Positions 14,813 to 18,830 of a DNA stretch of 64,000 nucleotides are shown here, in pieces. Source of the stretch: Octopus vulgaris (lineage: Eukaryota); assembly GCA_951406725.2 (NCBI GenBank), contig OX597824.1:58466001-58530000 (forward strand). The letters are read 5' to 3'. Position 1 is the stretch's first letter; each line of letters begins with the position of its first letter. The notes below the pieces were generated by a model. It was not told the origin of the DNA, searched no databases, and saw only the letters and a program-made list of their open reading frames with translations. The position numbers and the translations under genes were made by a program.

Positions 14813-15272
14813 TGGTAAAAACGGTAAGATAACAAAAGAAAGAAAGAGACCTGAATATTATGTAAATAGAGGAAATTATTGTATACTTCATTATGCTTTT
14901 TTTCTGTATTGTTACCCTTAACCATGTCTTTTCTTGTGCTTGTGCATATGTAGACGTATGTATGAACTTTTACGGTGCGCGTGTGTATGTATGAGTTTGT
15001 ATATATATGCATATATATTTGGCGAAAAATGCGAGTGAAGATGTGTACGTTTTCATAGTGATGTATACGTACGAACGTGGGTGCACGAACGTGGGTGCAC
15101 GAACGTGGGTGCGCGAGCGCACATGTATGCGTATGAGCAGGCATGCTTACGTGTTTACTATGAACTTTTAACCTATTTTAATTAGCGGTCATTGAATTAG
15201 CGCTTTTGAAGTAGCGGACTATAACACAGTAATTTCCCTTTATCGGTCTTTTTTCATAGCTTTTTTCAGATG

Positions 15273-15341
15273 GCCAGATAACTGAAGAGATGGTGTTGTG
15301 GTTTCCACCGCGGCATCCGAAACTCAGAGTTTTATCTTGGC
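15273..15341 (+). ncRNA. Type I hammerhead ribozyme motif
   Basis: gcca-gataa-CUGAAGA-gatg...catc-c-GAAA-ctcagag-UU-ttatc-ttggc; stem I 5+4 bp, GUU triplet, predicted cut after 15331. Confidence 0.75.
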
Positions 15342-15389
15342 TACCGATTAATCTGTATTATTTTACATATATATATATATATATGTACA

Positions 15390-16556
15390 TGCATGGTGTA
15401 CGTGCAAAACTTATTGGATATAAAAAGCATCCGAATTTACCAGCCTGTCATTCGTTTCCCGAACGCAGCAAGCGTGTCAAGACTGGCACGAAATCAGAAG
15501 GAACAAGCCATCGGACGTCTCAATGGTGGTCAACGTTCTTGAATCGAACTGCAGTATTCGAACAATTGAGCGGCTGAGGGAACGATACAATGCCATAGAT
15601 AGCACGGATGATCGTCCAGGCGGTGGCCGACCGTGGATTACAATGGCACGTCAAGATCGCCACTTACACCGACACCACATGCAGGACCGATTTCAGAGGG
15701 TAACGGAATCAGCTAGGCAGACCATAGGGACTCACCACAGATCCTTTTGTGCAAAGACAGCTCACCACCAGCTGATATCTTTCAATTTATCTTGTCGATG
15801 TCCGGCTAGGGGCTCCATCCTCACAGATGGTCATCAACGGGCATGTCTGCAGTGGGTTCAAAAACATCAGAATTGGTGATATCAGCAGTGGAGGATTATA
15901 GTTTTCTCTTACGAAAGTCGATATTGCATTTCTGTGGCAGACGACAGAGCTAGGGTTTGGAGAAGAAATGGTGAACGTCATGCCGATGGCTGTGTGATGG
16001 AGAGAGAGACTCACGTGGAGGACAGAGCATCATGGTATGGGGTGGGATTGCACTCAACCAGAAACCATCAGACAAGACTGGGAAAATGAGTCCTCACACT
16101 GTGTCATACTTTGCATGTCATCGGAATCACGTGTTCCATCACGACAACGCCCGTGCCTTACTGCTAGATTGACAAGAGACTTCCTTCAACAGTACAACAT
16201 CCAAACGCTGCCATTGCCCGCCCTAAGTCCGAACTTGAACACCATACAGCACTTGTGAGACAAAATCCAAAGATGGCTAAATGACGTCCGTCCAAGACTG
16301 ACAACTGCGTCACAACTCACTGCAAGTTTTAACAGAGTGTGGGCTGCTATCACCACAGCCTTCATTAAACATTTGGTACATTCAATGAACAGAAGATGCC
16401 TGGCGGTAATCAACGCTTCGGTGGTCACACGAGGTATTGAGTTCATTAGGAAAGAATGGTTTCTTAAGTGGCATTCTTCAATCAATGCCATAGCAATCCG
16501 TTAAGAAGCCCGTTTCTATTTAGTATGTATGCGACGTTTCTTTTGTGGTTCAGTTT
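15390..16556 (+). mobile_element. Degenerate Tc1-like transposon
   Basis: DRPGGGRP, RVWRRNGER, SIMVWGGI, HDNAR, PALSPNLNTIQHL in broken frames; right-TIR-like gtttcttttgtggttcagt. Confidence 0.85.
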
Positions 16557-16565
16557 ATATATATA

Positions 16566-16692
16566 CAGGGTGTCCCAAAAAATGTATACACACCTTAAAT
16601 AATTGTAAATTTGTTATTCTTTGTAAGCCTAGTACTTATTCTATCGTTCTCTTTTTCCGAACCACTATGTGTATACATTTTTTTGGGACACC

Positions 16693-16695
<3 letters not shown>
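16566..16695. mobile_element. Tc1/mariner-type MITE, 130 bp
   Basis: ~26-bp TIR cagggtgtcccaaaaaatgtatacac (1-nt indel), TA flanks; interior is a SINE-A fragment. Confidence 0.9.
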
Positions 16696-16757
<62 letters not shown>

Positions 16758-16861
16758 TACATTAAAAGGCTTCCAAATAAAGAAGCGAGTGCTAGATACA
16801 CAAAAAGGGGATAAATTTATGAAATGGAATGAAAATCAAAAACGCTTACCAACTCAGCTAA

Positions 16862-16936
16862 TCTTGTACCGCGGTTTCATCTCTTTTTTAGCAAATGAAT
16901 AGAATTTATCTGCCAAGGCCAGAATCATCAGCAAGA
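16862..16936 (-). ncRNA. Type I hammerhead ribozyme motif (copy 1)
   Basis: tcttg-CUGAUGA-long stem II-GAAA-ccgcgg-UA-caaga; perfect 5-bp stem I, palindromic ACCGCGGU stem III, GUA triplet. Confidence 0.8.
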
Positions 16937-17297
16937 GGCCTTTGTAATCCGAGATGTACATATCATTAGAAGCACGTGCAAATCTAACGATCTGTATGCC
17001 CTAACTTTTCAGACCAGTGCGCAGACGCAAATCATAACCGGCGACAGAGAGGATACCGGTAAAACATATACGAGCAAATTTATCGAGCATTATTTAAACA
17101 TAGTAAATAGGGTAATAAAAATAAATTATTATTACCAGTGACCTAGCACAAAAGACAAATTAGTCATTAGACTATATGTTATTCATATATAAGTACATTA
17201 AAATGCTTCCAAATAAAGAAGCGAGTGCTAGATACACAAAAAGGGGATAAATTTATGAAATGGAATGAAAATCAAAAACGCTTACCAACTCAGCTAA

Positions 17298-17372
17298 TCT
17301 TGTACCGCGGTTTCATCTCTTTTTTAGTAAATGGATAGAATTTATCTGCCAAGGCCAGAATCATCAGCAAGA
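17298..17372 (-). ncRNA. Type I hammerhead ribozyme motif (copy 2)
   Basis: Same core and stems I/III as copy 1; two substitutions in distal stem II. Confidence 0.8.
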
Positions 17373-17629
17373 AGCCTTTGTAATCCGAGATGTACATATC
17401 ATTAGAAGCACGTGCAAATCTAACGATCTGTATACCCTAACATACACAAACTCATTAGAGAAAATAATTATTGCCTGAGTGTATCAAGAATATAAAACAA
17501 CTGCAGTTGAAAGGTGTAAATACACATGCAACAATTCATACATGTGCCTAATTTATTTATATTAATAATTTTGAAAAGGAAGTTTTACAACACCAACTAT
17601 AAAACACGGACTGCCTTTTGTAGCTTTAA

Positions 17630-18427: not shown

Positions 18428-18618
18428 TTATTTGACTGTGGCCATGCTGGAGCATCGCCCTTACTCGAACAAACCGACCCCATTACTTATTCTTTGTAAG
18501 ATTAGAACTTACTCTATCGGTCTCTTTTGCCGAGCCGCTAAGTTACAGCATCGGTTGTCAAGCGATGGTGGGGGACAAACACAGACACACAAACATACAC
18601 ACACACATACATACACAC

Positions 18619-18668
<50 letters not shown>

Positions 18669-18830
18669 GACGGGCTTCTTTCAGTTTCCGTCTATCAAAT
18701 CTACTCACAAGGCTGTGGTCGGCTCGCTACTATAATAGAAGACACTTGCCCAAGGTGCCACGCAGTGGGACTGAACCCGGAACCATGTGGTTGGTAAGCA
18801 AGCCACTTACCACACAGCCACGCCTGCGCC
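18428..18830 (-). mobile_element. SINE family A
   Basis: Near full-length match to 2449-2830; B box ggttcagtcc. Confidence 0.85.

Follow-up and report, generated by a model that had tools for sequence, protein, structure and literature searches.

A dispersed octopus hammerhead family joins retrozyme-like units to a Penelope-type integration signature

The window (the whole 64,000-nt stretch of Octopus vulgaris DNA analysed) contains a short non-coding insertion that ends in a (TA)n microsatellite and carries two type I hammerhead motifs on its minus strand. T1 and T2 denote the two 3′ termini at which copies of this family end, and the parts of the insertion are as follows:

16755..17441, minus strand: whole insertion, 1.58 units of a 436-nt non-coding retrozyme; 5′-truncated at 17441, 3′ end at T1 into (TA)n
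17298..17372, minus strand: hammerhead 1, type I; stem I UCUUG/CAAGA, core CUGAUGA at 17367, long stem II with a U-U base, GAAA
17304-17311, minus strand: stem III palindrome ACCGCGGU of hammerhead 1; predicted cut 17303^17302
16862..16936, minus strand: hammerhead 2, with the anatomy of hammerhead 1; core 16931, palindrome 16868-16875, predicted cut 16867^16866
16867..17302, minus strand: predicted cut-to-cut monomer, 436 nt; 35% GC, fold z = -2.67
16769..16786, minus strand: short hairpin GCUUC/GAAGC ~15 nt before T1; internal copy at 17205-17222; arms covary among subfamilies
17097..17136, minus strand: covarying hairpin (17111-17136) and second family terminus T2 (~17097), the latter read through in the window copy
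16696..16755, no strand: (TA)30 target microsatellite at the 3′ end of the insertion
17018..17029, minus strand: conserved GC-rich motif UGCGUCUGCGCA (by eye), ~90 nt before hammerhead 2; absent before hammerhead 1
16792-16849, also 17228-17285, minus strand: intron-like stretch (GUAAG, pyrimidine tract, UCUAG) just 3′ of the hammerhead; conserved across subfamilies

The direct repeat within this insertion extends over 16749-17005 and 17185-17441 (257 bp with a TA overlap, 251 bp from 16755) at a period of 436, and its copies, as originally predicted, are ~98% identical; the five mismatches lie at 16768, 16892, 16898, 16937, and 16998. Both copies carry the predicted minus-strand string UCUUG-CUGAUGA-[46 nt]-GAAA-CCGCGG-UA-CAAGA, and the two cut sites delimit the same 436-nt interval that the prediction had named. 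Two of the differences lie in distal stem II, the only part of the motif in which the copies had been said to differ, but 16937/17373 also differs, two bases 5′ of the 5-bp stem I. The unit is indeed without an ORF, its longest ATG frame having 35 codons even when read round the circle, and it does abut (TA)n. What had been called a tandem unit is a real more-than-unit direct repeat, but the locus is a 1.6-unit dispersed insertion with a Penelope-type signature and no tandem array. Each of the five inter-unit differences is a rare variant confined to one unit and thus probably reflects mutation after insertion; both units carry one variant present in 0/97 other copies.

Element segments (n = 208) have a median length of 248 nt and a 95th percentile of 584, and the window copy belongs to the minority with two complete hammerheads. 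It begins only ~70 nt upstream of hammerhead 1, where it lacks the GC-rich motif (which may be a promoter element or a hairpin that stalls RT), so the locus would likely depend on an outside promoter or read-through transcription to release the 436-nt RNA. Its right flank starts ATACAC, which fits an insertion placed where a TA run ends. The copy is an ordinary, somewhat aged family member, probably without host function. As an intron, the stretch that follows the hammerhead is a lead only, and a genomic search for spliced copies gave 0 matches to the exon-junction pattern. At unit position 238 (17204 versus 16768), a C-to-A change beside a U run is seen again at 8 further loci belonging to different subfamilies, often confined to one of the units, and possibly marks a hot spot of RT slippage. 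Directly left of the (TA)n target lies a MITE-like inverted repeat of ~138 bp (16562-16699), preceded by decayed transposase-like reading frames (15260-16560, by eye) that are presumably Tc1-like; a Pfam search of 15424-15876 gave no match. Elsewhere in the window, 807-1715 holds a mariner-type transposase remnant (Pfam Transposase_1, E 6e-23), and 18430-18830 a common SINE-like interspersed repeat that is also found in the flanks of many family loci.

The search for other genomic copies, proposed as a check in the original prediction, disclosed a dispersed family: a first look gave 1807 candidates for the unit, and the 40 scored were 80–96% identical and spread over many contigs of the 2.8 Gb genome (227 contigs, very rich in microsatellites). 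Exact degenerate motifs gave 182, 126, 101, 475, and 826 genomic matches versus 0 for the reversed controls, the 182 belonging to a 21-mer that spans the 3′ half of the core and whose stem III is palindromic in 98 among the 100 matches listed. Direct repeats longer than one unit, with periods of ~400–455, sit at many unlinked loci, and the assembly artefact named as a possible refutation is thereby excluded. Subfamily periods are ~398, 427–448, and 445–455 nt, the last belonging to a young subfamily that is 68% identical to the window unit; a more distant sister family has only the T2 hairpin region in common. A ten-fold depth over the tail, considered as a possible autonomous element, was traced to this young subfamily instead. 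Contig-only runs (three guessed to be RNA, one of unknown kind), which cannot reveal ends, strand, or circles, contained pieces of several subfamilies including unit-boundary joints, and genomic copies give the same joints. Among rare variants, A>G (38) and T>C (55) occurred at equal rates (P = 0.67) and gave no trace of A-to-I editing, and an A>T excess (P = 0.003) was not reproduced when a second reference was used. Several other short hammerhead elements also lie beside (TA)n (L034:430-1030, L081:800-1370, L096:2950-3200, L038:30-170, L052, L039:100-570, and L042/L062), mostly with a palindromic stem III (ACUCGAGU, ACAAUUGU, ACACAUGU-like, ACGAUCGU), and the genome seems to host many independent retrozyme-like families.

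The family motif has the CUGANGA, GAAA, and NUH core elements and the three helices of a type I hammerhead, with core position 7 and the cut-site base varying within what the chemistry allows. Among 132 pattern-matched motifs, a few of them spurious, position 7 is A in 52, U in 50, and C in 29; stem I takes several fully complementary versions, and stem III is self-complementary or hairpin-forming throughout. Stem I types comprise UCCCA/UGGGA, UCCUG/CAGGA, CUUA/UAAG, CUUG/CAAG, CCUA/UAGG, and ACUCG/CGAGU. The dimer-type stem III palindrome noted in the window is kept across subfamilies, as ACCGCGGU, ACUGCAGU, or ACUGAUCAGU, with a ten-base version at further loci. Covariation was scored in 16 representatives (two rows being offset by one column in stem II): 92% of cells were paired, against 28–43% in slid controls, and six pairs had changed on both sides; across subfamilies, stems I, II, and III all covary. 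None of 500 shuffles reached the score, a count that is not a P value because the copies are related and related sequences can beat shuffles. The hammerhead is under structural selection across subfamilies.

Where the canonical motif has a G10.1–C11.1 pair and a 4-bp helix II, the window copy has U-U; in other subfamilies the base of stem II is G-C, G-U, A-C, or A-U with an extra A or bulge. The long stem II and the U-U had both been called atypical, and the latter does depart from the canonical pair, but it has precedents in the axolotl HHR_Amex2, where U-U at the base of helix II is described (PMC7229834), and, by eye, in a PLE (Penelope-like element) hammerhead, and the long stem II is family-wide. 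An Rfam hammerhead search, the other sequence check put forward with the prediction, failed to recognise the motif, with 0 matches at the gathering score and 17 unrelated matches at E<=10. The family provides a long covarying series of hammerheads that tolerates a weak stem II base and is missed by Rfam. Predicted energies for stem III (+0.9 kcal/mol, unstable, in the monomer; -14.1 kcal/mol for the palindrome duplex) fit the dimer model of PMC4209133 and PMC7229834. The active form is not the fold that prediction prefers: stem I pairs with a probability of 0.04–0.4 when the motif is folded alone and of 0 within the circle. Cleavage may therefore proceed slowly or with the help of a protein, as reported for PAc (PMC11167929).

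Read on the hammerhead strand, family copies are 5′-truncated at scattered points and have a 3′ end at T1 or T2 (~94 nt apart), followed by (TA)n. In a sample of 79 copies picked by a motif just after the cut, and hence independently of the termini, 63 of the 3′ ends were classed automatically as T1 (34) or T2 (29) with a microsatellite, and inspection by eye added 4; of the others, 4 read through and 8 had another end point or no microsatellite. An inverted 5′ arm is present at 18 of the 30 best loci, and the arm itself usually ends at T1 or T2 in (TA)n. Each terminus is preceded by a hairpin whose arms vary together, the T2 hairpin occurring as GUAAUAA/UUAUUAC (129), GUAGUAA/UUACUAC (32), and GCGAUAA/UUAUCGC (13). 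The insertions therefore have the anatomy of a non-autonomous PLE (5′ truncation, inverted 5′ copy, two 3′ termini, microsatellite target), endonuclease-bearing PLEs being described with partial tandems, an inverted 5′ copy, a tail, and a microsatellite bias (PMC8557442, PMC3846280), and their tail being explained as two RT start sites (PMC11167929). The unit, which has no ORF, lacks the reading frame with RT and GIY-YIG domains that marks an autonomous PLE.

GIY-YIG and protein searches located at least two intact PLE families in the same genome, with frames of 781 aa and 775 aa; both have a C-x4-C-x2-C-type or similar linker and, by eye, variant hammerheads. The 781-aa family (L061-L068) has an intact RT-EN, ends in the same way as the retrozyme copies, and carries near-identical pLTRs, an upstream ORF that reaches 479 aa and matches no Pfam family, and a hammerhead with a U3-A8 core variant (by eye). 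In the 775-aa family (L305-L334, e.g., G000:C14:47995581-47997302), the GIY-YIG match exceeds the cut-off and the RVT_1 matches are weak; all 76 scored copies are 100% identical over 573 aa. Its copies stop at one or the other of two sites, separated by 30 nt, and run into (TA)n (13 and 15 among the 30 ends listed, with 2 read through). The family has an upstream ORF and both tandem and inverted copies, and by eye bears a hammerhead with a variant CCGAAGA core, a U-U stem II base, and an AGUACU palindrome. Comparisons of the unit (blastn, nhmmer) with PLE loci making up a small part of the 6136 GIY-YIG candidates, both intact families included, gave no DNA homology. The 775-aa family has a short TTGGAA likeness ahead of T1 that is probably fortuitous, because in the retrozyme it is a varying hairpin arm, and PLE remnants near family copies (L157-L160, L308), considered as partners, look like nesting at a shared target.

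Our preferred reading, at a probability of roughly two in three, is that the window holds a 1.6-unit insertion of a dispersed non-coding hammerhead family whose RNA is likely cut to unit length by paired hammerheads, likely circularised, and likely copied into (TA)n by the RT and GIY-YIG endonuclease of a PLE. This reading starts from the dispersed family itself, the selection on its hammerhead, two fixed (TA)n termini placed after covarying hairpins, 5′ truncation, inverted arms, and multi-unit insertions of a single haplotype, and from the intact (TA)n-ending PLEs with the same two-terminus pattern. We class the family as a non-LTR retrozyme variant and infer its cleavage, circle, and partner. 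In the proposed mechanism, a transcript spanning two hammerheads would fold as a dimer via the 8-bp palindrome and be cut at both sites, and a host ligase would close the monomer into a circle; RtcB closes other retrozymes in vitro (PMC7229834). A PLE protein would then nick (TA)n and start cDNA at T1 or T2, often on both target strands to give an inverted arm, and the RT would run round the circle, falling off at ~0.4% per base. Only a minority of new copies, the window copy included, would acquire two hammerheads and could seed the next round. Two published observations count against this reading: Poseidon PLE used uncut RNA in vitro, with the hammerhead dispensable (PMC11167929), and 8/9 Xenopus retrozyme dimers did not cleave (bioRxiv 10.64898/2026.07.22.740005).

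The clearest evidence on the template comes from the young subfamily, whose arms reach 4.07 units and one of whose insertions totals 4.9 units. Two loci (L391, G000:C1:133322800-133326200; L392, C2:67789000-67792300) are single insertions of 4.9 and 4.1 near-identical units, and L392 has a GUU cut triplet in 4/4 units. Tandem units of this subfamily differ at 26/5552 compared positions (0.47%) and inverted arms at 19/3415 (0.56%), while different insertions differ by a mean of 3.2% over 210 pairs, 2.4% of which are within 0.5% (29 loci without duplicates, 27 of them in the distance calculation; terminus columns left out). Since the difference within insertions is far below that between them, each insertion is a concatemer of a single variant out of a diverse pool, and copying of a single monomer variant is what rolling-circle reverse transcription predicts. 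In older subfamilies, units of one insertion were no more alike than the best match between loci (8/37 direct pairs) in a test confounded by duplicate copies and TA ends, and rare variants common to both units were few (3 in 17 tandem loci).

These data bear on a linear template, the alternative in which the same element integrates in the same Penelope-type manner and the RT copies uncut read-through RNA, or jumps end to end on a cut monomer, with no circle. We consider this unlikely. Most passes cross the cut site intact, as it would have them do (in the young subfamily, 36 passes were intact and none stopped there), a 5′-end cluster 138–153 nt before the cut, including the end of the window copy at -139, could be a transcription start, and PAc RT prefers unprocessed RNA in vitro (PMC11167929). 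An uncut multi-unit master, however, would carry inter-unit differences and pass them on, yet units within an insertion resemble each other ~6–7 times more closely than insertions resemble one another; a single-monomer bottleneck removes such differences, which argues for a monomer template. No long array was seen among the loci examined, the longest arm being the one of 4.07 units. The simplest monomer of this kind is a circle; the alternative to it, a single cut RNA on which the RT jumps from end to end, would leave the same pattern in these data. Locus L256, where a 252-nt repeat without the core is joined twice exactly at the cut site, also speaks against a linear template; its junctions are those expected of a shortened circle, and one jump plus an unequal crossover over 31 bp could give them as well. 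Among 154 passes, 11 copy 5′ ends lay within 2 nt of the cut versus 3.0 expected by automatic classification (10 by eye, with 2 removed and 1 added), and a second set gave 0/~46 (pooled P ~0.008). Because 5′ ends also cluster at the edges of hairpins, such an excess can arise from RT stalling, and it is only suggestive as a trace of cleavage. Judged from genomic sequence, the family gives indirect support for a monomer intermediate, probably circular.

A very improbable alternative is that the unit belongs, as its pLTR, to an autonomous PLE that has been lost or has escaped notice, the short copies being 5′-truncated remains and no independent replicon. The anatomy would suit such an origin (a hammerhead ~113 nt before T1, a tail, and the intron-like stretch), and at L157 a PLE RT-EN remnant is joined directly to a family copy; the other flank of L157 resembles the 3′ region of the same PLE, which makes a nested insertion likelier. 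Against it, copies read through T2 into a next unit rather than an ORF, and subfamilies up to ~30% apart keep the 400–455-nt period. A pLTR origin is compatible with our preferred reading, the two differing only on independence. Local tandem duplication, a minisatellite, or an assembly artefact with a chance hammerhead-like string has next to no probability, for although Rfam finds no match and unequal crossover could explain single cases such as L256, it is refuted by the dispersal of copies in their hundreds, by their fixed termini, by the agreement in period between unlinked loci, and by compensatory changes.

Within the preferred reading of a likely cut and circularised RNA copied by a PLE, we further propose, tentatively and with a confidence just short of an even chance, that the family's genomic copies record rolling-circle target-primed reverse transcription, in which a PLE enzyme, probably a dimer, primes twice on one ribozyme-made circle and writes up to five identical units at (TA)n. 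If true, this would settle how animal retrozymes move and would suggest that the more-than-unit pLTRs of Penelope elements come from circular templates. The link between retrozymes and PLEs has been proposed before (PMC7229834; bioRxiv 10.64898/2026.07.22.740005), and the mobilisation of animal retrozymes and the importance of the hammerhead to PLEs are stated to be open (PMC7229834, PMC8557442, PMC11167929, bioRxiv 10.64898/2026.07.22.740005). A literature search found no prior report of an octopus hammerhead, a cephalopod Penelope, or rolling-circle target-primed reverse transcription of a retrozyme; the supplementary invertebrate list of PMC7229834 may include the lineage. Three things appear to be new: a retrozyme bearing the PLE integration signature, haplotype evidence, insertion by insertion, for a monomer template, and the long-stem-II hammerhead series.

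Among known systems, the metazoan non-LTR retrozymes of coral, mussel, and axolotl (Cervera and de la Pena 2020; PMC7229834) are alike in their non-coding 150–450-bp unit of GC <50%, a type I hammerhead with a short palindromic stem III in every unit, and co-occurrence with PLEs. The octopus unit is likewise a non-coding, low-GC unit in that size range with one type I hammerhead per unit and no ORF; insertions hold two complete hammerheads in 1.58 units at the window and 2–4 units in the sister subfamily. The described retrozymes form arrays of up to 62-mers (PMC7229834), whereas the octopus family consists of dispersed fractional insertions (0.1–4 units) with fixed (TA)n termini and inverted arms, and its stem II of ~46 nt with an internal loop is unlike those that PMC7229834 describes. 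Circular RNA is demonstrated for the metazoan retrozymes (PMC7229834); the octopus family is known from the genome. Plant LTR retrozymes differ in having a type III hammerhead in LTRs, a PBS, a PPT, and a 4-bp target duplication, the octopus hammerhead being type I and a target duplication being unreadable in (TA)n.

Li, Clavereau, and Pollet (bioRxiv 10.64898/2026.07.22.740005) also treat retrozymes as non-autonomous PLE derivatives related to pLTRs. Their evidence comes from vertebrates, without mollusc samples, and consists of co-occurrence and pLTR homology; the amplification that they propose is local and tandem. For the octopus family, the case is made by the integration signature and by the homogeneity of haplotype within each insertion, and no pLTR homologue was found among the PLE loci compared. 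Endonuclease-bearing PLEs (Penelope/Poseidon, Neptune; PMC8557442, PMC3846280, PMC11167929) share partial tandems, 5′ truncation, an adjacent inverted 5′ copy, an optional tail attributed to two RT start sites, microsatellite bias, and a terminal-repeat hammerhead; the octopus unit differs in having no ORF, a tail of ~94 nt versus 30–40 in PLEs, and a hairpin before both start sites. Chlamys elements such as MRC1 (PMC8557442) are likewise non-autonomous and pLTR-forming with multicopy head-to-tail insertions, but they are algal, generally have their 3′ end in common with an autonomous family, and for the most part are without canonical hammerheads as far as that source describes them. The retrozyme and PLE link made in the original prediction is thus supported by anatomy, a non-coding hammerhead unit being combined here with the full PLE insertion signature, and the multi-unit single-haplotype insertions point to a monomer bottleneck. 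The family also supplies natural substrates (a young subfamily, two covarying start-site hairpins, and a defined target) together with candidate enzymes, and the young autonomous 775-aa family, with its identical copies in the same genome, makes the rolling-circle reading testable in vitro.
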